Assembly: GCA_049512935.1 (NCBI GenBank)
Contig: JBEKWR010000004.1
Location: 52,808-116,807, forward strand
Direction of reading: 5' to 3'
Length of the DNA stretch: 64,000 nt
From: Candidatus Bathyarchaeia archaeon
Lineage (GTDB): Archaea; Thermoproteota; Bathyarchaeia; Bathyarchaeales; Bathycorpusculaceae
Each line of letters opens with the position of its first letter. Position 1 is the stretch's first letter. The position numbers were made by a program, and so were the translations under genes. The notes beneath the pieces are model-generated. The model was not told the origin of the DNA. It ran no database searches and saw only the letters and a program-made list of their open reading frames with translations. Shown here one piece after another: positions 4,104-56,459 of this stretch.

Positions 4104-4216
4104 CCGATTCACTTCTTTCAGGGTAAATCGGCGAATTTCAATAAATAGTCAGTTCACACACGGTAAACACAGCGAGTACACACAACAAGTTAGTAATGTT
4201 AAAAAAGCGAAGAGCG

Positions 4217-4555: not shown

Positions 4556-4570
4556 CCCAACGTTTCCTCC

Positions 4571-26577: not shown

Positions 26578-26592
26578 CTTTGAGGTTTTAAC

Positions 26593-27357: not shown

Positions 27358-27510
27358 CCAGCGGTTTACATTCTAAACTCGTTTCTTTACACAATTTTTC
27401 GGAACCTTTGCTTTTCTGCATTTGGAACGTGACTTTTGCCTAGAAATCTGGAAAGGTTTAAAAACAAAGTATGTCAGTCTTTAGTTAAACCTTTACAGAG
27501 GTTCCATAAT

Positions 27511-29862: not shown

Positions 29863-29869
29863 AAATGAA

Positions 29870-30412
29870 ATGTCATGTGAACCCTGGCAATGTGCAGAAA
29901 TAGCCTCAACTAAAAAAGCAAACCCAATAACTAAACCCGAGATAGCAGTAGCGATGATCAAAAAAGCCCAACGCCCCATACTTATTGTGGGCAGCAACGC
30001 CACTGAAAGATACATGGAAGGCAAACAACTAATCGAATATGTAATCGACCTCGCAAAAGCATCAAAAGTACCAGTCGTAGCCACAGCCCACATGGTTGGC
30101 GAATTCATAAAACGCGGATATCAACCAGCGGCATTTATGAATGCGATGGAGATTGGCAACCTGGTGGTTGATCCAACCTGGCAGGGCTTAGACGGCAAAG
30201 GACACCCAGACCTGGTTCTAGTGATCGGGCTGCCTTACTATGTTGAATCATTATTGCTCTGCGGACTCAAACACTTTGCACCTGACCTAAAAACCATGAC
30301 ACTGGACAACTTGTTCCATGTGCATGCAAGCTGGTCTTTCCCAAACGCAACCCCAGAAGAGTGGGCTGCAAACCTCAAAGTCATAACTTCAAAATTTGAA
30401 GGAGGACAATAA
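29870..30412 (+). CDS. cdhB: CODH/ACS epsilon subunit
   Basis: PWQ..A, KKAQRPILIVG, WQGLDGKG..D, LKHFAP; follows cdhA. Confidence 0.93.
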   Translation: MSCEPWQCAEIASTKKANPITKPEIAVAMIKKAQRPILIVGSNATERYMEGKQLIEYVIDLAKASKVPVVATAHMVGEFIKRGYQPAAFMNAMEIGNLVVDPTWQGLDGKGHPDLVLVIGLPYYVESLLLCGLKHFAPDLKTMTLDNLFHVHASWSFPNATPEEWAANLKVITSKFEGGQ

Positions 30413-30416
30413 AAAA

Positions 30417-31832: not shown

Positions 31833-33082
31833 CCAAGTTGCCTCAAGACGGCGACAAGAAAAAAGACAGCGAAGAACTAATACTCAGCAAAGAGTTGCTG
31901 GACGCGCTTGCGAAGTTCAAGCAAATCGAGATTGAAGACTTCGAGATCGACGTCAAAGAGCTAGAGCTAATCTTTGAGCCTGGAATGGCTGGGCAAGTGA
32001 TGCCCAAGCTAAAGCTTCCAGCCCCAGTTGCGGCAGGCGGAAAACCCACAGCCATGCTTCAGACGGCTTTCATACCGCCAATCGAAACCTACCCGAACAC
32101 GATAACAGAAGTCAAACTCGGCGCAACCCGAAGCGAAGGCGGAACACGCGGAAAATCATTCACCATAGGCGGCGAAACGTCACCCCCATTCTACAATTTT
32201 GAGCGACCCACCACTCACAAACCAGTAGTCACTTTGGACGTTTTCGACATGGAAGTGCCATTGAGCAAAGCCGTGAAGATGCACGTTAAAGACGTCGTCG
32301 GCGACCCAGCGGCATGGGCAAAACTTGCGGTAGACCAATTCAAAGCAGACATGGTTACAATCCATTTAATCAGCATCGACCCATTGCTCAAGGATGCAAC
32401 ACCGAAAGACGCGGTCAAAACGGTTGAAAAAGTTCTGCAAGCCGTGGATGTTCCCTTAGTCATCGGCGGCTGCGGGGACGCAGTAAAAGACGCTGACGTT
32501 TTCCAGGCGATCTGCGAGGCTTTCCCAGGCGAACGCTTCCTCATCAGTTCAATCACGCGGGACATGGATGTTGAACGCTGCGCAAAGTTCGTTAAGAAAA
32601 ACGGGCATGCTGCGCTCTCGTTCACACCGATGGACCTGAACCTGGCAAGGGAGCTTAACAGGCGGCTCTACGATTTCCTCGGCAGAGAAGACATTGTCAT
32701 GGACTTGACCACCGCGGCGCTTGGCTACGGCTTAGACTACGCATTCACAAACATGGAACGCGCAAGACTCGGCGGATTAATGGGCGACATGGAGCTGGCT
32801 CACCCGATGTCTTCGGGAACAACAAACGCTTGGGCTGCCCGTGAAGCCTGGCTGAAAATGTCTGCTGATTGGGAACCGCGCGAACTCCGAGGTCCACTGT
32901 GGGAAGTAACAACAGCCTTAACTCTTCTGCTTGCTGGCGTCGACCTGTTCATGATGATGCATCCAGCAGCCGTCAAAACACTCAAAGACGTAACCAACTA
33001 CCTGACAAGCGGCAAAAAAGCAGACCCAGCTAAATTCGCAGATTGGGTAACCATGAAAGCTCAAGGGGTTGGAAAGCAATGA
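31829..33082 (+). CDS. cdhD: corrinoid Fe-S protein small (delta) subunit
   Basis: LGATRSEGGTR, ALGYGLDY, NAWAAREAW, MMMHP. Confidence 0.95.
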   Translation: MTKLPQDGDKKKDSEELILSKELLDALAKFKQIEIEDFEIDVKELELIFEPGMAGQVMPKLKLPAPVAAGGKPTAMLQTAFIPPIETYPNTITEVKLGATRSEGGTRGKSFTIGGETSPPFYNFERPTTHKPVVTLDVFDMEVPLSKAVKMHVKDVVGDPAAWAKLAVDQFKADMVTIHLISIDPLLKDATPKDAVKTVEKVLQAVDVPLVIGGCGDAVKDADVFQAICEAFPGERFLISSITRDMDVERCAKFVKKNGHAALSFTPMDLNLARELNRRLYDFLGREDIVMDLTTAALGYGLDYAFTNMERARLGGLMGDMELAHPMSSGTTNAWAAREAWLKMSADWEPRELRGPLWEVTTALTLLLAGVDLFMMMHPAAVKTLKDVTNYLTSGKKADPAKFADWVTMKAQGVGKQ

Positions 33083-34500
33083 GCGAGAAAAAAAGAGCCA
33101 GCTTAAAAGAATTAAGCCCCATTGACATTTACAAGCTTCTTCCGAAAACTAACTGCAAGGAATGCGGTCAAGACAACTGCATGGCGTTCGCGACAAAAAT
33201 CGTTAACCGCGAAGTAGAAATCGACAGCTGCAAACCACTGTTCAAGCCCGAAAACGCGAAAGCCTACGCCAAACTCAAAGACCTGCTTAAGCCCGCCGTT
33301 AAGGAAGTCATCGTCGGCGTCGGCGACAAATCAAAGAAGCTCGGCGGCAAACTTGTCATGTACCGCCACGAGTTCACTTACAAGAACCCGACAGCTATCG
33401 CGATTGACGTGACCGACGAAATGCCAATGCAGGAAGTCGTCTCGCGTGTACAGTACACGGAGAACTTTAGCTTCGAATACATTGGTAACACGCTTAGGCT
33501 GGACATGATCGCGGTCAGATGCACTTCAGGAGACGCAGACAAATTCAAGGCAGTAGTCCAGAAAGTCGCGGAAACAACCAAACTTCCAATGATACTTTGC
33601 ACCCTGAACCCCGTGATCGCTGAAGCAGGCTTAATGGCGGCGCCAAAGGCGAAACCGCTACTGTACGCGGCAACTCAAACCAACTGGAAAGACATGGCTG
33701 AACTTGCCCTAATGTACGAGTGCCCGCTAGTTGCTTCTGCACCAAACGACTTGAACACGCTGGTTTCCCTTGCAAAGACACTTATGGCTTACGGAGTAAC
33801 CGACTTGGTTTTGGACCCAGGCACCTTCCCAAACGAAGGGTTACCTGACACAATCAACAACTTCACGATGCTGCGAAGGGCAGCATGCAAAGGCGGCGAA
33901 GAACTAGCAGGTTTCCCACTTATGGGCGTCCCGATGGTCGCTTGGAACGATAGCGCCTCGGCTGAAGACCTGCTGAAATGGCGTGAAGCATACTTAGCAG
34001 CAATGCTCATAGTTCGATACTCAGATGTGCTCGTGATGCACAGCGTAAGCGGCTGGTCACTTTTGCCAGATACAGTGCTGCGCCAGAACATCTACACTGA
34101 CCCACGCAAACCCGTCGCGGTCGCCCCAGGACTCAAAGTGTTCGGGACACCAGACGAGAACTCGCCAGTAATGTTCACCACAAACTTTGCCCTAACCTAC
34201 TACACCGTCGCCTCAGACCTCGAAAGCAGCAAAATCAACGCCTACCTAATCGTCGTTGAAACAGAGGGCTCAGCCATCGACAGCGGAGTCGCAGGACGAA
34301 AACTAACCGCGGAACGAGTAGCCGACGCAATCAAAGCCTCAGGCATCGAAAGCAAAGTCAAACACCGAAAACTCATAATCCCAGGCAAAGCATCACGAAT
34401 CAGCGGCGAAATCGAAGAACTCAGCGGCTGGAAAGTACTGGTCGGACCAAGAGACAGCAGCGAAATACCCAAATATCTCATAGAGAAATGGCAACCATAA
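33079..34500 (+). CDS. cdhE: corrinoid Fe-S protein large (gamma) subunit
   Basis: LPKTNCKECG..CMAFA, YTDPRKP, TNFALTY, VGPRDS; ATGA overlap with cdhD. Confidence 0.95.
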   Translation: MSEKKRASLKELSPIDIYKLLPKTNCKECGQDNCMAFATKIVNREVEIDSCKPLFKPENAKAYAKLKDLLKPAVKEVIVGVGDKSKKLGGKLVMYRHEFTYKNPTAIAIDVTDEMPMQEVVSRVQYTENFSFEYIGNTLRLDMIAVRCTSGDADKFKAVVQKVAETTKLPMILCTLNPVIAEAGLMAAPKAKPLLYAATQTNWKDMAELALMYECPLVASAPNDLNTLVSLAKTLMAYGVTDLVLDPGTFPNEGLPDTINNFTMLRRAACKGGEELAGFPLMGVPMVAWNDSASAEDLLKWREAYLAAMLIVRYSDVLVMHSVSGWSLLPDTVLRQNIYTDPRKPVAVAPGLKVFGTPDENSPVMFTTNFALTYYTVASDLESSKINAYLIVVETEGSAIDSGVAGRKLTAERVADAIKASGIESKVKHRKLIIPGKASRISGEIEELSGWKVLVGPRDSSEIPKYLIEKWQP

Positions 34501-35735: not shown

Positions 35736-37217
35736 ATAGGCTGCGGTATCTTCGGAGCAAAAAACTTTGAAAACCAAACGGTCTTTCCATACGTTTATTG
35801 GGGTCTCCGCGCCCAAAACCATCGAGGACACCAATCACACGGCTTCCTCACGTACGACAACAAGCAGTTTCATGTTTACAAAAGCTTGGATCTGGTTCCC
35901 CGCCTGAAAAACGAGGCTATCCACGAATGGTTCGACCGCCTGCCCGGTTCCGTAGGCATCGGCAACGTGCGTTACACCACGTCGGGCAAATGCGATGACG
36001 CCTCAATCATCGAGGGCACGCAGCCAGTAGCCGCTTCCGCAGGCGGGATAAAGATTGCGTTGTCGTTTAACGGCAACATCGTTAACACTCTGCCCCTGAA
36101 AAAGGAAATGAGCGAAAACTTCTCAGACTTCTACTTCAACTGCGACTCAGACGTGGTCTGCCACAAGCTGCTCCTCGGGCTGAAACAGGGCAAAGACCTG
36201 GCGTCTGCGGTGCGCTCTGTCATGGAAAGCCTCGACGGCGCGTTCTCCGTGACGGGCTTAACGGGCGACGGCGACTTTTTCGCCTTCAAAGACCCGCGTG
36301 GAATAAAACCCCTCTGCGCAGGGCACGACCCCCAAGGGGCAACCTACGCTTTTTGCTCTGAAACCGTCGGGTTAGACATGAACAGTTTCGTCAGGGACTT
36401 TGAATTGAATCCTGGCGAGCTGGTCACGGCTTCAAAAGACGGCTTCAAACGCACACAAATCATCCAAAATCCCCATCCAGCCTTCTGCGCTTTCGAGTAC
36501 GCCTACTTCGCGAGGCCCGACTCAAGGTTTGACGGCAAGTACGTTTATGAAATCCGCGAGGACTTCGGAAGAAACATCGTTAAAGAGTATCCAGACGTGG
36601 TGAAGGACGCTGACATCATCATGTCGGTGCCTGAGACAGGCGATGACCCAGCCATGGGCGTCCATGAGGCGTCAGGTTTACGGTGGGAACGCGCTTCAAG
36701 AAGGCACCGCTACGTAACCGAACGCGCCTTCATCCTTCTTAACACCGAGCGTTTCTCGACCATTGACAAGAAAATCAACATCTTAGGCTCCAAAGTAGAC
36801 GGCAAACGCGTCATAATAACTGAGGACAGCATAGTCCGAGGCGACACCACAAAAGTAATCATAGACAAGCTCCGCAGGGCAGGAGCCAAAAAAGTCTACG
36901 TCTTCGTCACGTTCCCAAGAATCATCGGTCCATGCTTCTACGGCATCGACATGTCAACTTACGGGCAACTCGTCGGCTCAAAACACGACGCAGACGGAAT
37001 CGCCAAAATCATCGGCGCAGACGGGGTATGCTACCAGTCAATTGGAGAGCTGGTGAAAGCGACAGGTCAAACCGAAAATGAACTCTGCATGGCCTGCATC
37101 ACAGGCAAGTACCCGACGCCCTGCGCTCAAAAGATGGCTGACGCCATGAAAAAGAGGTTCCTTGAAGGCTACGAGGAAAAATCAAGAATCTACGAGACTG
37201 AGGACGTTCAGCCGTAA
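35736..37217 (+). CDS. purF: amidophosphoribosyltransferase; apparent ATA start
   Basis: In-frame extension of the tracked ORF gives (M)GCGIFG..QNHRG; RYTT, NGN, CAFEYAYFARPDS, EDSIVRG, CFYGID, CMAC. Confidence 0.92.
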   Translation: MGCGIFGAKNFENQTVFPYVYWGLRAQNHRGHQSHGFLTYDNKQFHVYKSLDLVPRLKNEAIHEWFDRLPGSVGIGNVRYTTSGKCDDASIIEGTQPVAASAGGIKIALSFNGNIVNTLPLKKEMSENFSDFYFNCDSDVVCHKLLLGLKQGKDLASAVRSVMESLDGAFSVTGLTGDGDFFAFKDPRGIKPLCAGHDPQGATYAFCSETVGLDMNSFVRDFELNPGELVTASKDGFKRTQIIQNPHPAFCAFEYAYFARPDSRFDGKYVYEIREDFGRNIVKEYPDVVKDADIIMSVPETGDDPAMGVHEASGLRWERASRRHRYVTERAFILLNTERFSTIDKKINILGSKVDGKRVIITEDSIVRGDTTKVIIDKLRRAGAKKVYVFVTFPRIIGPCFYGIDMSTYGQLVGSKHDADGIAKIIGADGVCYQSIGELVKATGQTENELCMACITGKYPTPCAQKMADAMKKRFLEGYEEKSRIYETEDVQP

Positions 37218-37277: not shown

Positions 37278-38693
37278 ATGGAGAAAATAGGTGTACTCGT
37301 CGTTTCCTACGGCGCAAGAGAAGTCGCGATGGCTGACGCGCTTCTGCAGAGCAAACGCTACCAAGTGGAACTCTACGTCGCCGACAAGCAGCGCAACCCC
37401 TTCAACGCGGAAAAAGCCGCAAAACATGCTGTCATACCAAGCCTTGACGTGGGAGAAATCTGCAAGTTCGCCGAAGCCTACAAGGAAAAAATCGACTTCG
37501 CCTTGGTCGGGTCAGAAAAACCCATAATCGAAGGCGTCCGAGACCAAGTTGAGAAACGCACAGGCATCCCCGTCATCTGCCCCAAGCAACAATATGCCAT
37601 CGAAGTCAGCAAAGTTGAGCAACGCCAGCTTTTCGACGAGATTGCGCCAGAAGCGAACCCGCGCTTCAAAGTTTTCAACCCAGCCGACTACGCGAACAAA
37701 TTAGACGTTAAACCTGCCGTTTACAGCTGGCTAGACGAACTTGACAATCAAGCCGTCGTGAAGCCTGATAAGCCAGCCCTTGGAAAAGGCGTAGGCGTTT
37801 GGGGCGACCACTTCGCCAACCGAGAAGAACTTTTTGAGCATTTCATGTCCAACTTCCAGTACGGCAGCGTCATAATCGAAGAAAAAATCGACGGAGAAGA
37901 ATCCAGCTTTATGGCTTTCTGCGACGGCAAACACTTCGTGCCGCTGCCTGACACGCGGGACTACAAACGCGCCTTCGACGACGATCGAGGCCCAAACACG
38001 GGCGGCATGGGCTCATACAAAGACGCAGACGACAAGCTGCCCTTCTTAACGGCGGCTGAACGAGAGGCGGAGCTGGCTTTGGCGAACAAGATTTTCAACG
38101 GGTGGAGCGCCAAAATCAAAGATTACTCCGCGCTTAGGGGCGTGCCCCTGTATCTTGCCTTCATGCACACGGGGCACGGAATCAAAGTTCTCGAGAACAA
38201 CAGTCGCCCAGGCGACCCAGAAATAATCAACCTTCTCGCGTTGATCCAGGACGATTTTGTCGACGTCTGCCTCAAAATGATTGAAGGAAACCTGACAAGC
38301 ATCAAACTGGAAAAGGCTGCGTCTGTCTTGACCTACAAGGTGCCACTTGACTACGGCGGCTACGCAGAAGTCTTCCCGAAAAAAGCGGACAAGACGGCGG
38401 TTAACACTCCAGTTGACCTCTCAAAAGCCTATGCGCTGACAAAGAAGTACGGCAGCCGCATCCGCATTTACCCTGGCTCAATGGAAACAAGAGACGGCAA
38501 AAACTACGCGCTCAAATCGCGTGCGGTGGGCGTTTTAGGCATCGGCGAAAGCATCGAAGAGGCACGCAGCATAAGCCTGGAAGGAACCAAAGCCATCAGT
38601 GGCGGCGCCTTGTGGAGTCGAACAGACGTTGCCTCAAGACAGCATATCGCGAAGAGCGTAAGTCACATGGAAAACCTGAGGCGCAGCGTGTGA
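37278..38693 (+). CDS. purD: phosphoribosylamine--glycine ligase
   Basis: GARE, GKGV, IEEKIDGEE.S, DYKRAFDDDRGPNTGGMG, NSRPGDPE. Confidence 0.92.
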   Translation: MEKIGVLVVSYGAREVAMADALLQSKRYQVELYVADKQRNPFNAEKAAKHAVIPSLDVGEICKFAEAYKEKIDFALVGSEKPIIEGVRDQVEKRTGIPVICPKQQYAIEVSKVEQRQLFDEIAPEANPRFKVFNPADYANKLDVKPAVYSWLDELDNQAVVKPDKPALGKGVGVWGDHFANREELFEHFMSNFQYGSVIIEEKIDGEESSFMAFCDGKHFVPLPDTRDYKRAFDDDRGPNTGGMGSYKDADDKLPFLTAAEREAELALANKIFNGWSAKIKDYSALRGVPLYLAFMHTGHGIKVLENNSRPGDPEIINLLALIQDDFVDVCLKMIEGNLTSIKLEKAASVLTYKVPLDYGGYAEVFPKKADKTAVNTPVDLSKAYALTKKYGSRIRIYPGSMETRDGKNYALKSRAVGVLGIGESIEEARSISLEGTKAISGGALWSRTDVASRQHIAKSVSHMENLRRSV

Positions 38694-39769
38694 AGCGCAT
38701 CTTTATATCCGACTGTGAGGGACCGATCAGCAAGAACGACAACGCCTTCGAGTTAGCTTCAAACTTCATTCCCAACGGTGACAAACTTTTCGTAAACGTA
38801 AGCAGGTACGACGATGTTTTGGCGGATGTTCTGCACAAGCCCGGTTACTCTGCAGGCGCCACGTTGAAGCTCATCTTGCCCTTCTTTAAGGCGTACGGCG
38901 TCACCGACAGGCAGATGGAAGAGTACTCAGCCAACAACATAGTCCTAATCACTGACAGCCAAACAACCCTTAGGCACGTGCAATCCATTGCCGACGCCTT
39001 CATCGTCAGCACAAGCTACGAACACTACATCAAAGCCCTCTGCAAAACCGTGAGCTTTCCTTTCAAGAACACGTACTGCACCAAAGTAAGCCTCGACAAG
39101 ACCGCCATCTCCCCGCAGGAAAAAGAGCGCTTAAGAACCATAGCCCAAGAAATCGCGCTGATGCACAAAGTTGACATTCCGAAGGCGGCAAAGGCGCTTG
39201 AAGATTTTTCCGAAAGCGACCAAGCGGTCATTCAACGTTTAGACGAGATATTCTGGAGCGAAATTCCAAAGATGTTTGTCGGAAAATTCCTCGTTGACGT
39301 GGTGACGGTCGGTGGAGAACAGAAGGCTGAGGCAATCCGCGATGCGGTTCGACGTTCAGGCGCGGATTTGGCGGGTGTCATGTATGTGGGGGACAGCATC
39401 ACCGACGCGGAAGCCTTCAAACTCGTGCGTGCTAACGGCGGATTAACGGTTTCTTTTAACGGCAACGGATACGCGGTTAGGACCGCTGAAGTCGCCATAT
39501 TATCGGAGAGCAGTCTCGTCACCGCCGTGGTTGCGGACTTGTTCTGCAGGTTCGGGAAAGAAAAAGCGGTAAGCACGGTTCAAGAGTGGGGTTTTGAAAC
39601 GCTCAAAAACAGCGGTGTTGACTCTTCACTGCTTAAACAGCTTTCACAACTTTGCCCTGACGTGTTGCCTAAAGTTGAAATAGTGACGCCTCAAAATATG
39701 GAGGCGTTGGCAAAGGAAAGCAGCGAGTTCAGAGGGAAAGTGCGGGGAGTTGTGGGGAGGCTCGGGTAA
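38690..39769 (+). CDS. HAD-superfamily hydrolase (EhaR-like)
   Basis: Motif I variant FISDCEGP, motif II IVSTS, motif IV YVGDSITD..A, SFNGN; GTGA overlap with the purD stop. Confidence 0.8.
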   Translation: MKRIFISDCEGPISKNDNAFELASNFIPNGDKLFVNVSRYDDVLADVLHKPGYSAGATLKLILPFFKAYGVTDRQMEEYSANNIVLITDSQTTLRHVQSIADAFIVSTSYEHYIKALCKTVSFPFKNTYCTKVSLDKTAISPQEKERLRTIAQEIALMHKVDIPKAAKALEDFSESDQAVIQRLDEIFWSEIPKMFVGKFLVDVVTVGGEQKAEAIRDAVRRSGADLAGVMYVGDSITDAEAFKLVRANGGLTVSFNGNGYAVRTAEVAILSESSLVTAVVADLFCRFGKEKAVSTVQEWGFETLKNSGVDSSLLKQLSQLCPDVLPKVEIVTPQNMEALAKESSEFRGKVRGVVGRLG

Positions 39770-39770
39770 A

Positions 39771-40679
39771 ATGGTGAAGGCGGAAATCGAGGACACGTAC
39801 GCTGAAGCTTTCACTGGACTCTTTTGCCGCGTAATCGTGACCGCCGACGACGAGGAAACCCTTCGTAAGGCTGCTGCGGATTCTACGGCAACCCCATCGG
39901 TCGTTATCGGCAGGACAGAAGGCGGAATCGAAAAGTACCTTACCCAAAAAGAAACCCCTGACCAGCGCTTAGGCGCGTTGCTTCAGTTCTGGGGCGAAAT
40001 TAACCCGAAGAAAACCTTTGAGCAGTCGCTCAAGAAGTTTGAATCTGAGCTTTCCTACCGCATCCGCCAAGACATTCTTGTTAAGCCTTTCACCGCCGTC
40101 TACGACGCCCTGCCAGACGCTGAGGGCAAACTGGACATGATGGAGACTGTTGGACACTGCGGCGACGGGTACGAGTGGATTGAAAAACGCCGTGGCAGAG
40201 AGGTCATAGTTGTCCCCTTGATGGTTCCCGACTTCGTTATTGAACGGTGTTTAGGCTACGCGCGTGGCGTTATGGGAGGCAACTTTTGGGTTATGTGCAA
40301 AACCAAGCAAGCCATGAAACAGGCGGGAAAGAAGGCTTTAGCCGCAGTCCACACGGTGCTCGGAGTCGTGACACCTTTTGACGTTTGCTCCGCAGGCTCT
40401 AAACCCGAAACCCATTTTCCAAAGATCGGTCCAACCACCAATCACCTGTACTGCCCGTCGCTTAAGGCGCGGTTAGGCACGGAATCCCATGTTCCCGACG
40501 GCGTAGGTTACATAGCTGAAATAGTCATTGACGGGGTTTCTTTGGAAGCGGTCAAAAAAGCAACTAAAGCGGGAATCCAAGCGGTACGGGACATTGACGG
40601 GGTCGTGAGGGTTTCCGCTGGCAATTACGGTGGCAAACTGGGCGACTACAAAATAAGTTTGCGGGAGTTGTTTCCATGA
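39771..40679 (+). CDS. formylmethanofuran:H4MPT formyltransferase (Ftr) family protein, divergent paralogue
   Basis: IEDTYAEAF, ETPD, GDG.E, GGNF, GSK, TNH.YCP.L, SAGNYGGKLG; starts 1 nt after the HAD stop. Confidence 0.88.
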   Translation: MVKAEIEDTYAEAFTGLFCRVIVTADDEETLRKAAADSTATPSVVIGRTEGGIEKYLTQKETPDQRLGALLQFWGEINPKKTFEQSLKKFESELSYRIRQDILVKPFTAVYDALPDAEGKLDMMETVGHCGDGYEWIEKRRGREVIVVPLMVPDFVIERCLGYARGVMGGNFWVMCKTKQAMKQAGKKALAAVHTVLGVVTPFDVCSAGSKPETHFPKIGPTTNHLYCPSLKARLGTESHVPDGVGYIAEIVIDGVSLEAVKKATKAGIQAVRDIDGVVRVSAGNYGGKLGDYKISLRELFP

Positions 40680-41593
40680 CAAAGTTTGATGTTGTCGGCT
40701 TTGGCGCGCTTAACGTTGACATGCTCCTCAAAGTCGATAGGCTTGCAGGCGCGGAGGAAGAAAGTTTTATTGCGGATTACGCTGAGGCTTGCGGCGGCTC
40801 AGCTGCGAACACCATGGTTGGGCTGGCGAGGCTCGGGTGTAAAGTCGGGTTCATAGGAAAAGTGGCGAACGACCGTGAAGGCAAACTGCAAATTGACTGT
40901 TTTAACAGTGAAGGCGTTGACACGGGCGGCATCATTCAGGCAAAGCATGGGAAAAGCGGTTCAGTTTTGGGCTTCGTGGACAAGAAAGGCGCAAGAGCCC
41001 TGTACATTAACCCAGGCGTTAATGACACAATTGAGCCTCGGGAAATAAATTACGGTTACACCTTGGAAACGAAATTTCTGCATTACTCATCTTTTGTTGG
41101 AGAAAAATCTCTTCGTGCGCAAAAAAAGCTCTTAGGTGCCCTGCACAGCGATGTTAAAATCAGCTTTGACCCAGGTTCAGTTTATGCACAGAAAGGTTTT
41201 GCCGCAATAGAACCGATAATTCGCAGTTCTTATGTTTTGATGCCTAACGCTGGTGAACTTGAACTTTTAACTGGAGAAGCTGATGTCCCCAGAGGCGCCG
41301 ATTTGATGCTTGATGCAGGCGTCAAAATCGTCGCAGTTAAGCTCGGCGACAGGGGCTGCTACGTCACTGACGGGCAGGAACGGCTGAAAATCGAGCCTTT
41401 CAAAGTTAAAGTCGTCGACACAACCGGGGCAGGGGACGCTTTCTGCGCGGGATTCCTCTACGGCTTAATCAACGACAAAAGTCTCCAAGAATGCGGGCGA
41501 CTGGGAAATTTCGTCGCTTCAAGATGCGTCATGCAGATGGGTGCGCGTGCAGGTTTGCCTTACGCTAAAGATTTAGTGGCATTTCTTGGTTAG
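40676..41593 (+). CDS. PfkB/ribokinase family kinase (nucleoside kinase-like)
   Basis: GGSAANT..GLARLG, VVDTTGAGDAF; ATGA overlap with the Ftr-like gene. Confidence 0.93.
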   Translation: MTKFDVVGFGALNVDMLLKVDRLAGAEEESFIADYAEACGGSAANTMVGLARLGCKVGFIGKVANDREGKLQIDCFNSEGVDTGGIIQAKHGKSGSVLGFVDKKGARALYINPGVNDTIEPREINYGYTLETKFLHYSSFVGEKSLRAQKKLLGALHSDVKISFDPGSVYAQKGFAAIEPIIRSSYVLMPNAGELELLTGEADVPRGADLMLDAGVKIVAVKLGDRGCYVTDGQERLKIEPFKVKVVDTTGAGDAFCAGFLYGLINDKSLQECGRLGNFVASRCVMQMGARAGLPYAKDLVAFLG

Positions 41594-42394
41594 GTTGTCG
41601 ATGATGCTTTGGAAGATTAGTTTTCCGTCGCCGTACTGCGTCATCTGCTGTTGCCTTGTCCAGTCAGGCTGCTGCCACCAGTACATCGCCCTCTCCGGGT
41701 GAGGCATAAGCCCGAAGACGTTTCCTTCCCTATTGCACAGGCCCGCGATGTCGAAGGTTGAGCCGTTCGGGTTGACTGGGTACTTGCCGTCCGCTACGTC
41801 GCCGTTTTTGTCGCAGTAGCGGAAAACCACCATGTCTTTATCAGCCAGTTCCGCAAGCAACTCCCTCTCTTTCTCTTTTGGGAAAAGCAGTCTGCCTTCC
41901 CCGTGAGCAATGGGCATCCTCAGCACTTTTCCAGCGGGGATTTTGTTTGTGAACGCGCATTTTCCACGGTTTTCATGCTTCAGGTAAACCCACTGGCACT
42001 TGAAGCCTGCAGGTTCATTGTTGGTTAACGTGGCTTCTGGGTAAGTGCTCACGCCTTTGAAGCCTGGCAGCAAACCGTACTCAACCATTATTTGGAAGCC
42101 GTTGCATATGCCCAGAATGGGTCTGCCTTCGTCGATGAATTTTTCCATTTCCTTGCCGAGCTTGGCGCTGAGGTGCCTCGCGAAAATCACGCCTGAACGC
42201 ACATAGTCGCCAAACGAGAAGCCGCCTGGAAAAACCAGAACCTGATAATCCAGCAAACTGTGAAGTTTCGCCAGTTCGTTAACCTGCAAGACGTCCGCTT
42301 GGATGCCTAGCTCCTGAAAAGCCCGCTGGGTCTCAGCGTCACAGTTGGTTCCGCCGACACGCATCACGCAAACTTTGATTTCTTCCTGCTCCAT
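41573..42394 (-). CDS. purQ: FGAM synthase glutaminase subunit
   Basis: GTNC, PGGFSFGD, GICNGFQ, AHGEG, MPHPER. Confidence 0.96.
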   Translation of the reverse strand: MEQEEIKVCVMRVGGTNCDAETQRAFQELGIQADVLQVNELAKLHSLLDYQVLVFPGGFSFGDYVRSGVIFARHLSAKLGKEMEKFIDEGRPILGICNGFQIMVEYGLLPGFKGVSTYPEATLTNNEPAGFKCQWVYLKHENRGKCAFTNKIPAGKVLRMPIAHGEGRLLFPKEKERELLAELADKDMVVFRYCDKNGDVADGKYPVNPNGSTFDIAGLCNREGNVFGLMPHPERAMYWWQQPDWTRQQQMTQYGDGKLIFQSIIDNLTKKCH

Positions 42395-42395
42395 C

Positions 42396-44786
42396 TTAGG
42401 AACCTCCACTCAACGTTTTCTTCCAGCTGCCCCGCAGCTCTGCAAGCGAAGCGTCGACAGCGATTTTTCCTTTTAACCCGTTAATGACTAGACGTTGGTC
42501 TTCGGTTACCCTGCCAATTTGGGCGCAGGGCTTGCCTTTCATTAGAAGTTCAAAGTCCCGCTTATCCTGCTCTGGCACTTCCAGCAGGAAACGGCTGTTC
42601 GACTCGGAAAACAACACAAAATCATCGCGCTCCACTCCTTTAGCGGGCACTTTGCATAAATCCAGCTGCAAACCGTAGCCGCCAGCAAACGCCATCTCCG
42701 CCGCCGCCACCGCCAACCCTCCTTCCGAGAGGTCGTGGCATGACCTGATTAAGCCCGAGTCTATGGCTTTAGTTACTGTTCTGAACGTGCGTTTGGCTTT
42801 GGCGCCTTTAACTTTTGGAACGCTTGCGCCCAAGTAGCCTTTAAGCCTGTAGTATTCTGAACCGCCAAGCTCGCTGAAGGTTTCGCCAGCGACGTAGAGC
42901 AGGTTGCCTGGCGCTTTCAAATCCATCGAAGTGACAAATTGGATGTTTGGAATTATGCCCACAGCGGTTATCAGCAGTGTCGGCGTGACTGGTCCCATCG
43001 GAGACTCGTTGTAGAGGCTGTCTTTTCCCGAGATAAACGGCGTCTTGAACGCCACGGCAAAGTCGTAGCATGCTTGGCAGGCTCTCACCAAAGTGCCTAG
43101 ACGCTCTGGCTTCTCAGGGTTGCCCCATGTGAAGTTGTCCAGCAGCGCTATTCTTCTTCCGCCCACGGAGATGTTGTTGCGTACCGCTTCGTCAATGGCT
43201 GAAGCCGCCATCCAGTACGCGTCGATCTTGCCGTAGTTCGGGTTCATTCCGCATGAAATTGCTAAGCCTTTCCAAGAGTCGTCAAGAGGTTTGAGCACGG
43301 CGGCATCGTTTGGACCGGCATACTCGCCTTGCAGGGGTTTAAGCGTCGTGTTTCCCTTTACCTCATGATCGTATGTTCGTATGACGCTTTCTTTGCTGGC
43401 GATGTTTGGCGCCCCAAGCAGCTGAAGCAGGGTTTCAGTCAGGTTTTTTGGCTCTGGAAACTCGGGTTCAACGAAGTTTTGTCTTTCAAGTGTCGCTGTC
43501 TTCGTGCTTTTGCACGGATTAAACAGGAAATCCATGTCCATGTCAGCAACTTTTTCCCCGTTGAAATCAAGCTCAAGCCGACGCAAAGGGGTGAGTTTGC
43601 CTATCGCTGTGGCTTCTACGTCTTCTTTTGCGAAAATCGCCATCACTCGCTCCAAGTTCTCAGGCGGCACGGTTATGAGCATTCTTTCCTGTGATTCAGA
43701 AATGTAAATCTCCCACGGCGCTACACCTTGATACTTGAGCGGCACCCTGTCAAGTTCAATCGTTACTCCACACCCGAATCTTTCAGCTGTTTCTCCAACA
43801 GCAGAGGATAAACCCCCGCCGCCAAGGTCAGTCGTCGCCGACGCAAGCTGCAGGTCGCGGATTTCAATTATTGCCCGTTTGACTTTCTCCTCTTCGATTG
43901 GATCGGCGATTTGCACGGCTGGACGGGAAATCTCCTCCGACTTCTCGGTTAATTCCGCAGAGGCGAAGGTAACGCCGTGTATGCCATCGCGTCCAGTTTT
44001 TCCACCTGCCAGAACAACGATGTGCCCTGGCTTGGCGTTTTTTGTGAACTTGTCAAGTGGCAAGATTCCTATGCATCCGCAGTAAACGGTGACGTTGCCC
44101 GTGTAGCTTTCATCAAAGTAAATTGCCCCGTTCACGGTTGGGATGCCCATGTTGTTTCCGTAGGCGCTGATGCCCGCCGTGACGCCCATGTAAACGTATT
44201 TTGGGTGTTTCACGCCCGCGGGAAGCTTGTTGTAATCGTAATCCAGCGGTCCGAAGCCTAAAACGTCCGTGCAGGCGATCGGGTCAGCCCACACGCCGAG
44301 GATGTCTCTGATTACGCCGCCGACGCCTGTGGCTGCTCCGCCGAATGGTTCCACAGCGGACGGGTGGTTGTGCGTTTCAACTTTTGCTGCTATGCCGTAG
44401 CCCCTGTCGAATCGGACGATGCCTGCGTTGTCTTCGAATACGCTGAAGCACCATGGCGGGTTGATTTGTTTGGTGGCTTTTGCGACGTAGGTTTTGAAGA
44501 GGCTGTCGATTTCTTTGCCGTCGAAGAAGATTTTTCCTTTGAAAGTCTTGTGGCAGCAGTGTTCTGACCAGGTTTGGCTGATGGTTTGCAGTTCAACGTC
44601 GGTCGGGTTTCTGCCTTCACGTTTGAAGTACGCTCGGATGCTCTTCAACTCTTCAAGGCTTAAGCCTAAGGCTAGCTCGTCGCTGGCTTCGGCGAGTTGC
44701 TGCTCGCTGGCTTCGGCTAAGGCTACCTCGTACAGCAGATAGCCCGCTTTGCGTGGGACGTAGAGGTTGGCGTTCTTAGCGTTCAT
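42396..44786 (-). CDS. purL: FGAM synthase subunit PurL
   Basis: QTWSEHC.H, ETHNHPS, DLGGGG, SESQERM, SGKDS, HDLSEGG. Confidence 0.97.
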   Translation of the reverse strand: MNAKNANLYVPRKAGYLLYEVALAEASEQQLAEASDELALGLSLEELKSIRAYFKREGRNPTDVELQTISQTWSEHCCHKTFKGKIFFDGKEIDSLFKTYVAKATKQINPPWCFSVFEDNAGIVRFDRGYGIAAKVETHNHPSAVEPFGGAATGVGGVIRDILGVWADPIACTDVLGFGPLDYDYNKLPAGVKHPKYVYMGVTAGISAYGNNMGIPTVNGAIYFDESYTGNVTVYCGCIGILPLDKFTKNAKPGHIVVLAGGKTGRDGIHGVTFASAELTEKSEEISRPAVQIADPIEEEKVKRAIIEIRDLQLASATTDLGGGGLSSAVGETAERFGCGVTIELDRVPLKYQGVAPWEIYISESQERMLITVPPENLERVMAIFAKEDVEATAIGKLTPLRRLELDFNGEKVADMDMDFLFNPCKSTKTATLERQNFVEPEFPEPKNLTETLLQLLGAPNIASKESVIRTYDHEVKGNTTLKPLQGEYAGPNDAAVLKPLDDSWKGLAISCGMNPNYGKIDAYWMAASAIDEAVRNNISVGGRRIALLDNFTWGNPEKPERLGTLVRACQACYDFAVAFKTPFISGKDSLYNESPMGPVTPTLLITAVGIIPNIQFVTSMDLKAPGNLLYVAGETFSELGGSEYYRLKGYLGASVPKVKGAKAKRTFRTVTKAIDSGLIRSCHDLSEGGLAVAAAEMAFAGGYGLQLDLCKVPAKGVERDDFVLFSESNSRFLLEVPEQDKRDFELLMKGKPCAQIGRVTEDQRLVINGLKGKIAVDASLAELRGSWKKTLSGGS

Positions 44787-45034
44787 TGCTGCGCCTCAAG
44801 GGTCACCGTGTAATTGTCTTTGGTCGGGTTTGCCAGAAGGCGCTTGCACATTTCTTCCGCCTTTGCCTTTGCCTCTTTAGGTGTTGCTGCGTCAAGCGTC
44901 ACAGTGTAGACTTTGCTCACGTCTACGGCTTCCACCTTGTAGCCGAGTTCCTTCAGTAAACGGGCTGTTGTTTCCCCTTCAGGGTTGCTGTGCCCTGGCT
45001 TTAGGCTGACTTCGATTTTGGCTTGGTATTTCAT
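44783..45034 (-). CDS. purS: FGAM synthase subunit PurS
   Basis: LKPG..NPEG, MCKRLLANP; located between purM and purL. Confidence 0.93.
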   Translation of the reverse strand: MKYQAKIEVSLKPGHSNPEGETTARLLKELGYKVEAVDVSKVYTVTLDAATPKEAKAKAEEMCKRLLANPTKDNYTVTLEAQQ

Positions 45035-45092
45035 AAATCCTTTAAATTATCCTACAGGATTTAAACGCTTTCGACATAAAAAAAGCAAAACT

Positions 45093-46172
45093 TTACGTTA
45101 AAACCAGCCTTTTATTTTGGTACTCTATTACCACCGTTTGCTTGTCCGTCACTTTGCCTATCAATTCAGGCTGTGCACCTTGCCGTTCCAGCGTGCTCAT
45201 GGCTTTATCAACCTCCGCTCTGCCGACAATTATGCCGAAGCCCCATCCCATGTTGAAAGTTTTGAACATCTCCTCATCAGAAATGCTGTAGCCCAGTTCC
45301 AGAGCGGTTTTTTGGATTAACCCAAATATGGGTTGAGGTTTGAAGTTTGTGAATTTAAATCCTATTCCAGGCGAAAAATTGGCAAGGTTGCCAAATTTCA
45401 TGTAAGCGTCGCCCGTTATGTGAACCGCGGCTTTAACCTTAACCTGCTTGGCTACTTTGAGAAGCGGTTTAACGTAGATTTTTGTGGGCTTCAGCGCCTC
45501 AAGAACGATCTCCGTGTCGAAGCCGTCGGGGATGTCGTTGGGTTCGTATTTTCCGCCCCACAGCTTAAAGAGAATCTTTCGCACCATCGTCAAGCCGTTG
45601 CTGTGTACCCCGCTGCTTGCCAAGCCTATTATTGGGTCTTCGGGCTTGATGTTTTCGCCCGTGATGATCTCCTGCCTTTCAACGGTGCCGACCGACGTAA
45701 CCACCATGTCAAAACCGACCCTTTGAGCCAAGCCCTTTATTATCTCCGCCACGTCGCCCGTTTCGCCTCCCGTGACTGGGCACTCGGCGTCGGCGGCGCC
45801 TTGAATTATCCCCTTCAGGAGTTCTCTGACAAGCTTAGGTTTGCTGGCTTGCACGTGGATGTTGTCGGCTATGGAGAGTGGTCTGGCTCCTGAACGTATC
45901 ACGTCGTTGACCGCCATCGCCACGGCGTCCACGCCTATTGTGTCGTACTTGTCGGCTAGCTGCGCGAGCAGCACTTTGGTGCCAACGCCTTCGATGACAA
46001 GGTCCAGGAAGGTGTTTTCTCCCACTGGGAAGATGTTGCCGTATGGGAGCCTCATGACGTTTCCGAAGTGGCTGTGTTTGTAGGTCTCCGTAAGTTTTTT
46101 AAGCGCCTTTTTGGATTCGACGCGTTGCTCCCGGTTTACTCCTGCGTCCGTGTATGTGTAGTTTTTAGGCAA
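45093..46172 (-). CDS. purM: AIR synthetase
   Basis: YTDAGV, EGVGTK, GGET, SSGVHSNG, HITG, TFNMG. Confidence 0.95.
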   Translation of the reverse strand: MPKNYTYTDAGVNREQRVESKKALKKLTETYKHSHFGNVMRLPYGNIFPVGENTFLDLVIEGVGTKVLLAQLADKYDTIGVDAVAMAVNDVIRSGARPLSIADNIHVQASKPKLVRELLKGIIQGAADAECPVTGGETGDVAEIIKGLAQRVGFDMVVTSVGTVERQEIITGENIKPEDPIIGLASSGVHSNGLTMVRKILFKLWGGKYEPNDIPDGFDTEIVLEALKPTKIYVKPLLKVAKQVKVKAAVHITGDAYMKFGNLANFSPGIGFKFTNFKPQPIFGLIQKTALELGYSISDEEMFKTFNMGWGFGIIVGRAEVDKAMSTLERQGAQPELIGKVTDKQTVVIEYQNKRLVLT

Positions 46173-50093: not shown

Positions 50094-50110
50094 ACCCACT
50101 TCCTATATGT

Positions 50111-56098: not shown

Positions 56099-56377
56099 GT
56101 CCTTCGCCTAGCATGTTCTCAGGGGTCGCTGATTGATCAAGCATACTCTTTAACTATTAGGAATCGTGGTTTATCAACTAATCTAAAAACACTCTTAAAT
56201 TGAAGCTTGAACCGTTGGTTTTCAGCGGTCTTGCTTTCTTGGTAGATCGTTAGCTTCTACGCATTTTGCTCTGCGAACTGTGAAAGTTTCATACTTGAAG
56301 AGTGGAATCTGTTTGTTCATGTTAACTGTCTCCTTGACCCTTCATAAGGAAAGACGTTGTGATTAAGGGCTCCGAAA

Positions 56378-56424
56378 ATAGTCTATATAGTACTATATAG
56401 ACTATATAGCTGTTATCTATATAG
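56378..56424. promoter_or_regulatory. 28-bp perfect palindrome plus four CTATATAG octamers upstream of ppk1
   Basis: ATAGTCTATATAGT/ACTATATAGACTAT (56378-56405); octamers start at 56383, 56393, 56402, 56417. Confidence 0.6.
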
Positions 56425-56459
56425 CAAAGGTTAAATTCCGCATCGAATTACTAAAACGC

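Follow-up and report, generated by a model that had tools for sequence, protein, structure and literature searches.

Which enzymes take purine synthesis from GAR to FGAR (step 3) in archaea lacking both PurN and PurT? The window, a stretch of 64,000 nucleotides from a Candidatus Bathyarchaeia archaeon, holds a candidate answer. Between purF-purD and purQ-purL-purS-purM, as read from ORF translations and Pfam matches, lie three translationally coupled genes (38690-41593) for an EhaR-family HAD protein, a formyltransferase paralogue (Ftr2) and a ribokinase-like PfkB kinase. We argue that this trio is probably the module for step 3 in archaea without PurN and PurT. Our literature search found no publication linking the trio to GAR formylation. 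A passage of Brown et al. (2011, PMC3261824) reports purN and purT as not found in Archaeoglobi, Methanobacteria and M. kandleri. In passages of Chadwick et al. (2022, PMC9012536), Ftr2 is assigned to Archaeoglobales, M. kandleri, M. marburgensis and ANME-1, and ANME-1 is described as without PurN and PurT, the enzyme for the step being 'as yet unidentified'.

A coupled trio among purine genes

The genes run purF-purD-HAD-Ftr2-PfkB, their stop and start codons overlapping, and purQ-purL-purS-purM faces them (Table 1), so that genes for purine steps 1, 2, 4 and 5 flank the trio. The GTG start of the HAD gene overlaps the purD TGA as GTGA, and the PfkB ATG overlaps the Ftr2 TGA as ATGA. The Ftr2 reading frame opens at 39750; its likely start is the ATG at 39771, one nucleotide past the HAD TAA and with GGAGG upstream. 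The purD product scores 115 bits on GARS_A, 56 on GARS_N and 21 on GARS_C, the last below its cut-off, and its 242 bits on TIGR00877 do not reach the cut-off of 288. The purL name rests on the gene's place between purQ and purS and on reading of its sequence, without a Pfam scan.

No hydrogenase subunit turned up when the window's 51 larger ORFs were scanned with Pfam. The sole hydrogenase-related item in the window is an FrhB/FdhB-family gene at 19079-20137. An earlier, sequence-only reading had described a HAD protein with a DxE motif (DCEGP), an Ftr paralogue and a PfkB kinase coupled here, with no hydrogenase subunits nearby; ORFs, overlaps and Pfam matches bear this out.

Table 1. Trio genes, HAD motifs and flanking purine genes, in window coordinates
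Feature	Position	Strand	Basis or remark
purF, amidophosphoribosyltransferase, step 1	35886..37217	+	GATase_7/GATase_6 matches; kept upstream of purD in related loci
purD, GAR synthetase, step 2, divergent subtype, 471 aa	37278..38693	+	
HAD, EhaR-family phosphatase-like protein, 359 aa	38690..39769	+	Pfam HAD matches; JGI EhaR name
HAD motif I, D-C-E-G-P (nucleophile Asp; Glu at +2)	38711..38725	+	sequence
HAD motif IV, G-D-S-I-T-D	39389..39406	+	translation
Ftr2, paralogue of formylmethanofuran:H4MPT formyltransferase, 302 aa from ATG	39771..40679	+	FTR and FTR_C
PfkB-family ribokinase-like kinase, 305 aa	40676..41593	+	PF00294; co-varies with HAD
purQ, FGAM synthase glutaminase, step 4	41573..42409	-	GATase_5, 225 bits
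purL, FGAM synthase, step 4	42396..44786	-	translation; orthologues in related loci
purS	44783..45034	-	PF02700, 78.5 bits
purM, AIR synthetase, step 5	45093..46172	-	AIRS and AIRS_C matches

The three proteins

The Pfam matches of the HAD protein are weak (Hydrolase_3 26.4 bits, HAD 24.5, Hydrolase 22.4). Its family profile matches AF1437 of Archaeoglobus fulgidus (PDB 1Y8A) with an E value of 5e-70, placing both in one family, and the predicted model (AlphaFold, pLDDT 97) superposes on that structure with TM 0.79/0.91. The nearest solved folds after 1Y8A are phosphoserine phosphatases. The HAD protein agrees with SerB/PSP-type phosphatases in core fold and motifs, but PSP has DxD where the HAD family has DxE, and the family also has a large insertion made of helices and a helical part at the C-terminus. 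Among 62 diverse members D8 is kept in 53, E10 in 57, G11 in 62, S107 in 56, K212 in 60, the motif IV residue D235 in 53 and D239 in 62. Judged from this alignment, the DxE motif I is a signature of the whole family and not peculiar to the window copy.

Ftr2 shares with Ftr (Ftr1) of the methanogenic/Wood-Ljungdahl C1 pathway both full-length domains (FTR 149 bits, FTR_C 181 bits) and a conserved Glu, which aligns with the catalytic Glu of Ftr and is invariant in 67 of 67 Ftr2 sequences. It is about 40% alike to the solved Ftr enzymes (PDB 1M5H, 1M5S, 1FTR), and scores 336.7 bits on NF002554 (cut-off 297) and 235 bits on TIGR03119, below the cut-off of 292.6. Ftr2 differs from Ftr1 in forming a separate clade (67/67 sequences apart from 12 Ftr1 sequences, support 0.97) on a long branch of 0.85 substitutions per site, and when aligned with the Ftr of 1M5H it shows an insertion of 9 residues. 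Unlike Ftr1, this second Ftr copy is linked to pur genes; the other Ftr of the genome lies on contig 9.

The kinase matches PF00294 over its full length (176 bits). Among NCBIfam models it scores best on ribokinase (167 bits, cut-off 299.65) and on ribose-1-phosphate kinases, as against only 72 bits on the nucleoside kinase model. 'Ribokinase-like' is therefore more exact than the earlier label 'nucleoside-kinase-like'.

Distribution in Bathyarchaeia

The genome (93% complete) gave zero matches to PurN. The best match to the PurT model (50.7 bits, in a 1090-aa open frame) we take to be CarB, not PurT. No PurH was found, and PurP is present as two tandem copies. Because two PurP are present and PurN and PurT are not, GAR to FGAR is the only step without a known enzyme in this genome.

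In one draw of 201 Bathyarchaeia genomes the HAD protein occurs in 117, of which 116 also have PurD. A PurT- or PurN-family match is absent from 110 of these 116, while 63 of the 66 genomes with PurD and without HAD have one. Those 66 divide into 9 with a PurT-like match, 54 with a PurN-family match and 3 with neither; 19 of the 54 lie above the curated cut-off and 35 below it, so that the latter are possibly not true PurN. PurD is also absent from 18 of the 84 genomes without HAD, and two HAD-less relatives (G010, G034) likewise gave no PurD match. The kinase follows the HAD protein, with matches in 112 of 117 HAD-bearing genomes and in 9 of 84 without HAD, all nine weak paralogues (identity at most 36%, E 3e-46 or weaker).

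The distribution of the trio is thus complementary to that of PurN and PurT, although genome counts overstate independence because genomes of one class are kin. The exchange is also seen within one family (f13), where G068 has the trio and five relatives in the draw (G042, G153, G373, G437, G441) have PurT, and at a single position, since the slot directly after purD in HAD-less genomes holds PurT (G278, G337, G456, G472) or PurN (G466, G439, G443, G468, G512). Some HAD-bearing genomes have both systems: G542, with a PurT-like match of 186 bits, and G482, with a PurN-family match of 101 bits.

Synteny, transferase exchange and fusions

In Bathyarchaeia genomes, purD immediately precedes HAD at 79 of 80 loci (the remaining contig starts 95 nt before HAD), Ftr2 comes directly after HAD at all 80, and PfkB is next at 77; where the contig continues for 2 kb or more downstream, PfkB is there in 74 of 74 loci. 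Chance falls far short of explaining this order. The trio joins pur genes, not hydrogenase genes, here and in every Bathyarchaeia locus examined.

The transferase can be exchanged. G408, G076, G107 and G440 have a divergent PurN-like gene after purD and retain HAD and kinase; an Ftr scan of the first three found a single Ftr each. Locus L092 has a PurN-like transferase in place of Ftr2, with HAD and kinase still there. P0177 is a PurN-like::HAD fusion; TIGR00639 gives 53 bits for its N-terminal part, which also matches PDB GAR transformylases (E 3e-10). The ATP-grasp::HAD fusions P0200 and P0232 match PurT best, but weakly.

Metagenomes of other lineages show three further arrangements: HAD-Ftr2 convergent with canonical purD, without PfkB within about 5 kb; purF-purD-HAD facing PfkB, without a formyltransferase within about 5 kb; and purF-purD-PurN-like-HAD-PfkB. 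The metagenome loci with ATP-grasp and HAD and those with a stand-alone 'DWEGPW' HAD have no pur neighbours; in some metagenome loci stand-alone HAD genes adjoin FmdE. No hydrogenase genes were found in 13 loci scanned with Pfam; none was seen in the Bathyarchaeia loci either, which were screened with the window proteins as queries, a screen that Eha genes would escape.

Discussion

That the module acts in GAR formylation is, in our judgement, likely. From here we infer donor, substrates and order. Ftr2 would take a formyl group from the methanogen-type C1 pool (formyl-methanofuran or N5-formyl-H4MPT) and place it on the amino group of glycinamide, and the product would be a primary-amine formamide, chemically of the same kind as formyl-methanofuran. 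The EhaR-type HAD and the PfkB kinase would be obligate partners of the transfer: most likely the HAD would strip the 5'-phosphate from GAR, the transferase would formylate glycinamide riboside, and the kinase would put the phosphate back with ATP to give FGAR. This order of events is plausible, and we offer it tentatively. Because phosphate is removed and then restored, one ATP would be spent, as in PurT, and this cost could make a near-equilibrium formyl transfer irreversible and guard FGAR against deformylation.

The idea of a purine module had come with the rationale that a phosphate close to the acceptor group would not suit Ftr. Linkage to pur genes and complementarity with PurN and PurT support the module, but the rationale is weakened because some lineages have a PurN-like transferase in place of Ftr2 and nonetheless retain HAD and kinase. 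The same exchange, with the kinase tracking HAD, strengthens the case for an obligate partnership of phosphatase and kinase with formyl transfer.

PurT and PurN share with the trio the proposed net reaction, the slot after purD and, in Bathyarchaeia, a complementary distribution; PurT also spends one ATP per formylation, as the trio would if the shunt is real. Ftr2 is homologous to neither, three proteins stand where PurT or PurN is one, and the donor would be formyl-MFR or formyl-H4MPT and not formate (with ATP, PurT) or 10-formyl-tetrahydrofolate (PurN). Riboflavin synthesis uses HAD phosphatases on ARPP and riboflavin kinase at a later stage. By analogy this may serve as a precedent for phosphate removal by a HAD enzyme, a dephosphorylated working form and a later kinase; pathway and enzymes are different, and the likeness is mechanistic only.

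Several observations count against the module. It would cost one ATP more than direct transfer, and the fusion of HAD to an ATP-using PurT-like ligase speaks against an ATP ratchet as its rationale. ANME-2a and ANME-2b carry both PurN and Ftr2 according to a passage of Chadwick et al. (2022, PMC9012536), and Brown et al. (2011, PMC3261824), in a passage on the donor, pass on the opinion that formyl-H4MPT does not function as one. The presence of both systems in G542 and G482, the 35 PurN-family matches below the cut-off, the kinship among the counted genomes, the metagenome loci with an incomplete module and the HAD family members without the nucleophile Asp (9 of 62) weigh against it as well.

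A different division of labour is less probable: Ftr2 or the PurN-like protein would formylate GAR directly, and HAD and kinase would form a side system for early purine ribosides, either an overflow valve when formyl donor is short or salvage and repair of dephosphorylated or mis-formylated intermediates. Repair or salvage had already been named as the alternative in the sequence-only reading. The linkage to step 3 is identical evidence for this arrangement, and certain loci keep just two of the three genes together. Salmonella has a PfkB-family aminoimidazole riboside kinase, by analogy a possible precedent for salvage of purine-intermediate ribosides. However, a side system should not track the type of formyltransferase so closely: HAD and kinase accompany Ftr2 or PurN-like proteins, none of the nine PurT genomes and no PurN above the cut-off. 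Nor would it be expected to be fused to the transferase, as in P0177, or translationally coupled between purD and Ftr2.

It is improbable that the HAD protein is instead a non-phosphatase, a GAR-binding or scaffold subunit passing the PurD product to the formyltransferase, with the kinase in an unrelated, ribose-linked role. In motif I a Glu takes the usual position of the general acid/base Asp, the nucleophile Asp is missing in 9 of 62 members, so that some cannot be phosphatases, and HAD is fused or adjacent to three kinds of putative GAR formyltransferase. Against this, the four HAD motifs are kept in most members (D8, S107, K212 and D239, counts above), the solved structures closest in fold, 1Y8A apart, are those of active phosphoserine phosphatases, and enolase-phosphatase E1 is an active HAD enzyme with a DxE motif I. 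A scaffold would also leave the kinase tracking HAD unexplained.

It is very improbable that the trio serves another PRPP or ribose-phosphate pathway (methanopterin or another cofactor), with its closeness to pur genes reflecting shared regulation only, or consists of true Eha subunits or accessory proteins: co-transcription with ehaA-R in Methanothermobacter, noted in the operon description of Kaster et al. (2011), and the FmdE neighbours fit such roles, but hydrogenase genes are missing from the window and the 13 scanned loci, complementarity and slot replacement are not predicted, and the PurN-like::HAD fusion points to GAR formylation.

The step 3 module also offers a reading of the eha operon. 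Its last three genes, EhaR/EhaS/EhaT, belong to the same three families as the trio, as likened by names and descriptions: the same account of Kaster et al. (2011) gives EhaR, Ftr-like and ribokinase-like proteins at the operon's end in Methanothermobacter, and JGI names close homologues of the window HAD 'energy-converting hydrogenase A subunit R'. The parallel drawn earlier therefore stands at this level. The Bathyarchaeia trio differs in being joined to purF-purD and facing purQLSM, with no hydrogenase genes nearby. The EhaR/S/T organisms are also without PurN and PurT in the survey passage of Brown et al. (2011, PMC3261824), and the gene distributions given in these published passages fit a purine role for EhaR/S/T of Methanobacteriales.

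The trio probably fills a gap in archaeal purine synthesis that has been open since 2011. If so, EhaR/S/T of Methanobacteriales would be a purine module and not hydrogenase subunits, co-transcribed with the hydrogenase that replenishes formyl-methanofuran.

Results

The genome, G000, comprises 2.30 Mb in 49 contigs and is 93% complete. It is of Bathyarchaeia type, the name borne by close homologues of the window's proteins. A scan of open reading frames with Pfam places a purine cluster at 35.9-46.2 kb of the window, and the trio lies inside it: a HAD-family protein, a formyltransferase paralogue (Ftr2) and a PfkB kinase. The plus-strand genes for PurD, HAD, Ftr2 and PfkB are translationally coupled. 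The GTG of HAD overlaps the TGA of purD as GTGA, the ATG of Ftr2 follows the HAD TAA by 1 nt and is preceded by GGAGG, and the ATG of the kinase overlaps the Ftr2 TGA as ATGA. The HAD motif DCEGP is encoded at 38711-38725, and Pfam detected no hydrogenase subunit among the 51 larger open reading frames of the window. The sequence-only reading had described a linked trio here with no hydrogenase genes nearby, and the gene positions, the coupling and the Pfam results confirm it on both points.

Features of the window and their positions
Feature	Position	Strand	Cluster or basis
CODH/ACS (cdh) cluster, complete, with two CooC-like ATPases	25798-34500		directly upstream of purine cluster
DUF5615/PIN-like protein, 119 aa	34885-35244		alone between cdh and purine clusters
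purF	35886-37217	+	purine cluster
purD	37278-38693	+	purine cluster
HAD-family gene	38690-39769	+	Pfam
Ftr2	ORF from 39750, probable ATG 39771, end 40679	+	Pfam FTR and FTR_C
PfkB kinase	40676-41593	+	Pfam PF00294
purQ, purL, purS, purM	41573-46172	-	purine cluster, convergent on trio
PPK2	49191-50093		polyphosphate cluster
Ppx/GppA with HD domain	50111-51691		polyphosphate cluster
CHAD-metallophosphoesterase-HD fusion, 788 aa	51676-54042		polyphosphate cluster
PPK1	53984-56098		polyphosphate cluster
CYTH protein	56933-57481		polyphosphate cluster

Two neighbouring clusters deserve mention. The cdh-pur neighbourhood was seen again in many related loci; the DUF5615/PIN-like protein may represent the toxin of a toxin-antitoxin pair. 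A polyphosphate cluster, recognized by Pfam, occupies 49191-57481.

Purine steps 1, 2, 4 and 5 are encoded in the purine cluster. AICAR formylation is covered by PurP, the formate-dependent AICAR formyltransferase, present in G000 as two tandem genes (L185 and L186, G000:C3:128530-130169); no PurH was found in G000. Step 3, the formylation of GAR to FGAR, is the known reaction of PurN and PurT. At 93% completeness, G000 gave no PurN match and no PurT, the top match to the PurT model (50.7 bits) being a 1090-aa open frame taken to be CarB. GAR formylation is the only step without a known enzyme in G000. The trio is located between the genes for step 2 and step 4.

This arrangement is widely conserved. 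A locus scan with a narrow HAD alignment found 80 genome loci; apart from a few that bear the names Thorarchaeota, Nitrososphaerota or "uncultured archaeon", all are labelled Bathyarchaeota or Bathyarchaeia. Ftr2 lies directly downstream of HAD in 80/80 loci, and purD directly upstream in 79/80, the last contig beginning 95 nt before HAD. PfkB comes next in 77/80, and in all 74 loci that extend 2 kb or more downstream; purQ/L/S/M are less than 10 kb away in 65/80. The trio and the pur genes are thus syntenic, as the purine proposal in the sequence-only reading would have it, in a set of loci whose conservation is partly inherited because all belong to one class.

Metagenome loci add further arrangements. 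In Group A (L105-L109, L112), HAD is fused to, or directly follows, an ATP-grasp protein of about 560 aa, the two being separate adjacent genes in L108 and L109; no pur neighbours were found at these loci, and the neighbours that were present gave no pathway clue. In Group C, HAD-Ftr2 is convergent with a canonical purD and beside purF (L120, L122; L124 is without Ftr2), with no PfkB within about 5 kb. In Group D (L123, L125-L127), purF-purD-HAD faces PfkB, with no formyltransferase within about 5 kb. Taken together, the genome loci and the metagenome arrangements put HAD beside purD in four different architectures. Group B consists of stand-alone HADs of a "DWEGPW" type near FmdE (L113, L116, L118). 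These adjoin an FmdE-zinc-finger protein, a replication factor C subunit and a MobA-like transferase, and the conserved loci hold no pur genes.

Genome searches covered the window's own phylum; the Eha-linked context of the trio is taken from the literature. In a phylum sample of 401 genomes, HAD was present in 53 of the 60 genomes of the window's class and in one of 341 from other classes, as a weak match of 62 bits (G335). That match, scored with the EhaR profile, belongs to locus L104 (G335:C4:20000-30000), where a PfkB gene and, directly after it, a distant HAD occupy 3630-5620. This HAD is 22% identical. The neighbour here is a xylose-isomerase-like TIM barrel instead of pur genes, and the two genes may be an unrelated kinase-phosphatase pair.

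Within the class, one draw of 201 genomes was searched with five queries. HAD was found in 117 and PurD in 182, counts that are not independent events because the genomes are kin; the pattern still includes switches within families. PurD accompanied HAD in 116 of the 117 genomes, and 110 of these 116 had neither a PurT-like nor a PurN-family match. A PurT-like match occurred in one HAD-bearing genome (G542, 186 bits) and PurN-family matches in five (G076, G107, G440, G408, G482). Eighteen of the 84 genomes without HAD were also without PurD. The other 66 had a PurT-like match in 9 cases and a PurN-family match in 54, of which 19 scored over the curated cut-off and 35 below it. Neither was found in three (G442, G445, G467), whose family relatives have PurN or PurT. 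Two close relatives without HAD, G010 and G034, gave no PurD, PurN or PurT match.

The kinase follows HAD. A kinase match (E <= 1e-30) was present in 112/117 HAD-bearing genomes and in 9/84 without HAD, the latter all at 36% identity or less and E 3e-46 or weaker. In the class sample the HAD-kinase pair was found in none of the nine PurT genomes and in none with PurN over the cut-off. A within-family switch can be seen in f13, where G068 carries purF-purD-HAD-Ftr2-PfkB (L101) and PurT is present in five relatives from the draw (G042, G153, G373, G437, G441). Among genomes without HAD, PurT stands right behind purD in G278, G337, G456 and G472, and PurN in G466, G439, G443, G468 and G512. PurT or PurN there occupies the slot held by the trio in the window.

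PurD itself falls into two types. On TIGR00877, most PurD proteins of HAD-bearing genomes stay under the cut-off of 288 with 222-274 bits, and most of those from PurN or PurT genomes reach 300-505 bits. G436 and G460 depart from this, with HAD and a score of about 397 bits, as do G390, G455 and G463, where HAD is absent and PurD scores about 245-253 bits. The window PurD has a weak GARS_C domain. Possibly the PurD substrate site evolved together with the module. Two PurN-family genes stand in tandem behind purD in G468 and G512. One exceeds the PurN cut-off and the other reaches about 81 bits; G446 has the same tandem pair on a contig other than that of purD. The second tandem gene may be a different formyltransferase.

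The transferase can change while the other two genes stay. G408 carries purF-purD-PurN-like-HAD-PfkB (L092), and G440 has purD, PurN-like, HAD and PfkB in the same order. In G076 and G107 the PurN-like gene comes after purD, and HAD sits with PfkB at another place in the genome. G408, G076 and G107 have a single Ftr each. A change of transferase type leaves the HAD-kinase pair in place. The PurN-like type seen here reaches 52-75 bits against the PurN model, over model positions of about 50-171 only. It shares 46-53% identity with the N-terminal part of P0177, a protein of 599 aa in which a PurN-like domain is fused to an EhaR-type HAD.

P0177 came from a search of cluster representatives, as did two further fusions, P0200 (899 aa) and P0232 (961 aa), in which an ATP-grasp domain is joined to HAD. 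The N-terminal domain of P0177 gives 53 bits with TIGR00639, and among solved structures GAR transformylases match it best (E 3e-10). The ATP-grasp domain of P0200 and P0232 matches PurT best, but weakly (NF006766, 33 bits; PDB 2CZG, E 0.06; atlas score 0.89-0.90). Fusions and adjacency together tie HAD to three kinds of real or putative GAR formyltransferase. No longer fused forms of HAD or Ftr2 were found in an index of 5.8 billion proteins, which is weak evidence.

The HAD protein is homologous to proteins annotated EhaR, a name used by JGI and KEGG. JGI labels many of its 120 best matches (72-83% identity) "energy-converting hydrogenase A subunit R", and the EhaR parallel drawn in the sequence-only reading holds. 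Among 1.84 billion cluster representatives it has 616 relatives at E <= 0.001 and 205 at E <= 1e-30. Among public sequencing runs, 24 DNA runs from peat and wetland metagenomes were listed as holders, and no RNA run.

Motif I of HAD keeps the nucleophile Asp and has Glu at +2 (DCEGP), departing from the canonical DxD. Across 62 diverse members the motif reads [ST]-D-C-E-G-P. G is found in all 62, E in 57 and D, the nucleophile, in 53, leaving nine without it; DxE is a signature of the EhaR-type family. Motif II (S-T-S-Y) has S107 in 56/62 and T in the remaining 6, motif III has K212 in 60/62, and motif IV (G-D-S-I-T-D) has D235 in 53/62 and D239 in 62/62. Activity with DxE is known from the HAD enolase-phosphatase E1, and the Glu is therefore no sign of an inactive enzyme. 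The single solved structure matched strongly by the family profile is 1Y8A (E 5e-70), that of AF1437 from Archaeoglobus fulgidus, an uncharacterised protein of the same family. The AlphaFold model (pLDDT 97.2) has a Rossmann-like core and a cap domain and superposes on 1Y8A in Foldseek with TM 0.79/0.91; the next matches are SerB/PSP phosphoserine phosphatases, ThrH and MtnX. Given the kept motifs and the superposition of the model on phosphatases, HAD is predicted to be PSP-like with extra helical parts, and it has every sign of a working phosphoryl-transfer site.

Ftr2 has both lobes complete, with FTR (PF01913, 149.1 bits, model positions 5-142 of 142) and FTR_C (PF02741, 181.2 bits, positions 1-149 of 149) above their Pfam cut-offs. 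It exceeds the cut-off of the subfamily model NF002554 (336.7 bits against 297) and falls under that of TIGR03119 (235.4 against 292.6), the equivalog for formylmethanofuran:H4MPT formyltransferase. Its alignment with solved Ftr enzymes covers the full length and shows a 9-residue insertion. The second copy in G000, Ftr1, which belongs to the C1 pathway, is on contig 9. A tree built from 67 Ftr2 and 12 Bathyarchaeia Ftr1 sequences sets Ftr2 apart from Ftr1 as one clade (67/67, support 0.97) on a long branch of 0.85 substitutions per site. E250 of Ftr2 is invariant in 67/67 Ftr2 sequences. Its aligned counterpart in PDB 1M5H is the Glu of "YEIVING", which we take to be the catalytic Glu of Ftr from structure work on the M. 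kandleri enzyme.

The kinase matches PF00294 over its full length (176 bits, model positions 3-300 of 302), and its translation contains "CGGSAANT" and "TTGAGDAF", presumably the GG and GAGD motifs of the PfkB family. The earlier description of it as a nucleoside-kinase-like PfkB stands for the family and needs correction for the specificity. No named NCBIfam kinase model reached its cut-off for the window kinase, which scores best as ribokinase-like (ribokinase equivalog TIGR02152, 167.1 bits, under the cut-off of 299.65) and not as a nucleoside kinase in particular.

Discussion

The proposal that the trio is a purine module and not a set of hydrogenase subunits is well supported by its synteny with pur genes and by its distribution, which is complementary to that of PurN and PurT. 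The substrates are putative, the ATP-grasp::HAD proteins do not suit the energetic argument given below, and some loci have two of the three genes together. We therefore consider a role of the trio in GAR formylation likely, and give somewhat less than an even chance to the particular route proposed, a good hypothesis in which the substrate would be dephosphorylated, formylated and rephosphorylated.

In this route, the EhaR-type HAD would take the phosphate off GAR. Ftr2, or a divergent PurN-like enzyme, would formylate glycinamide riboside, drawing on the low-energy formyl groups of the methanofuran/H4MPT pool. The PfkB kinase would put the phosphate back, trapping the product with ATP. The transferase would handle the dephospho form only, and PurL would meet FGAR only. 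A phosphatase and a 5'-kinase that accompany the transferase suit such a scheme. Such an ATP-driven ratchet would let a poor formyl donor feed purine synthesis at a cost of one ATP, equal to that of PurT.

Formyl-methanofuran and FGAR alike carry their formyl group on the nitrogen of a primary aminomethyl group, so a formyl transfer of the Ftr type to the glycinamide amine would be chemically natural. The formyl group on methanofuran or on N5 of H4MPT has a low transfer potential relative to that of N10-formyl-folate, as is familiar from Thauer's and Maden's reviews, and direct transfer would thus lie near equilibrium. The absence of the HAD-kinase pair from genomes with PurT, or with PurN over the cut-off, fits an ATP trap. 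The ATP-grasp::HAD fusions are at odds with this energetic argument. Riboflavin synthesis is a precedent for the logic of dephosphorylation followed by a kinase.

Eha reportedly supplies reduced ferredoxin that refills the formyl-methanofuran pool drained by biosynthesis. Co-transcription of the module with Eha in class I methanogens could then reflect the replenishing of formyl-methanofuran withdrawn by purine synthesis. We hold more tentatively still that a three-enzyme route to FGAR through a dephosphorylated intermediate operates in a large part of Archaea, its genes being co-transcribed with Eha in class I methanogens for this refilling. The lineages concerned would be Bathyarchaeia and, by published distributions, Methanobacteriales, Methanopyrus, Archaeoglobi and ANME-1.

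The literature holds the pieces of this picture separately. The Ftr-like and ribokinase-like genes of the Methanothermobacter eha operon are co-transcribed with ehaA-R, and on that ground their products were taken as hydrogenase subunits (Kaster et al. 2011). Excerpts of Brown et al. (2011, PMC3261824) state that purN and purT were not found in M. kandleri, two Archaeoglobi and four Methanobacteria, underline the purine prototrophy of M. thermautotrophicus, and list the GAR-formylation enzyme as missing in Methanobacteria, Archaeoglobi and Methanopyrus, as it has been since 2011. According to excerpts of Chadwick et al. (2022, PMC9012536), ANME-1 has neither PurN nor PurT, its enzyme being "as yet unidentified", ANME-2c has PurT, and an Ftr2 paralogue is described in the lineages with the missing enzyme. 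ANME-2a and ANME-2b, with both PurN and Ftr2, are exceptions. As far as these excerpts go, the list of lineages with Ftr2 and the list without PurN or PurT coincide almost exactly, and the excerpted text of Chadwick et al. does not connect the two. No assignment of GAR formylation to the trio was found in the literature collection searched; work outside that collection, and supplements, may add to this.

Comparative evidence now names candidate genes, and the question can be tested with three recombinant proteins. A long-standing gap in purine synthesis becomes a direct experiment on named genes. If the riboside shunt is true, it would bring a new pathway intermediate and a new case of ATP coupling through a phosphatase-kinase pair. 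If the trio does formylate GAR, it would be a third, non-homologous solution to a universal step, and it would tie purine synthesis to the methanofuran/H4MPT C1 pool. The Eha hydrogenase would lose three supposed subunits, and gap-filled steps in metabolic models of biotechnology methanogens would be corrected. Genes annotated as "EhaR", second Ftr and ribokinase would be re-annotated in thousands of archaeal genomes.
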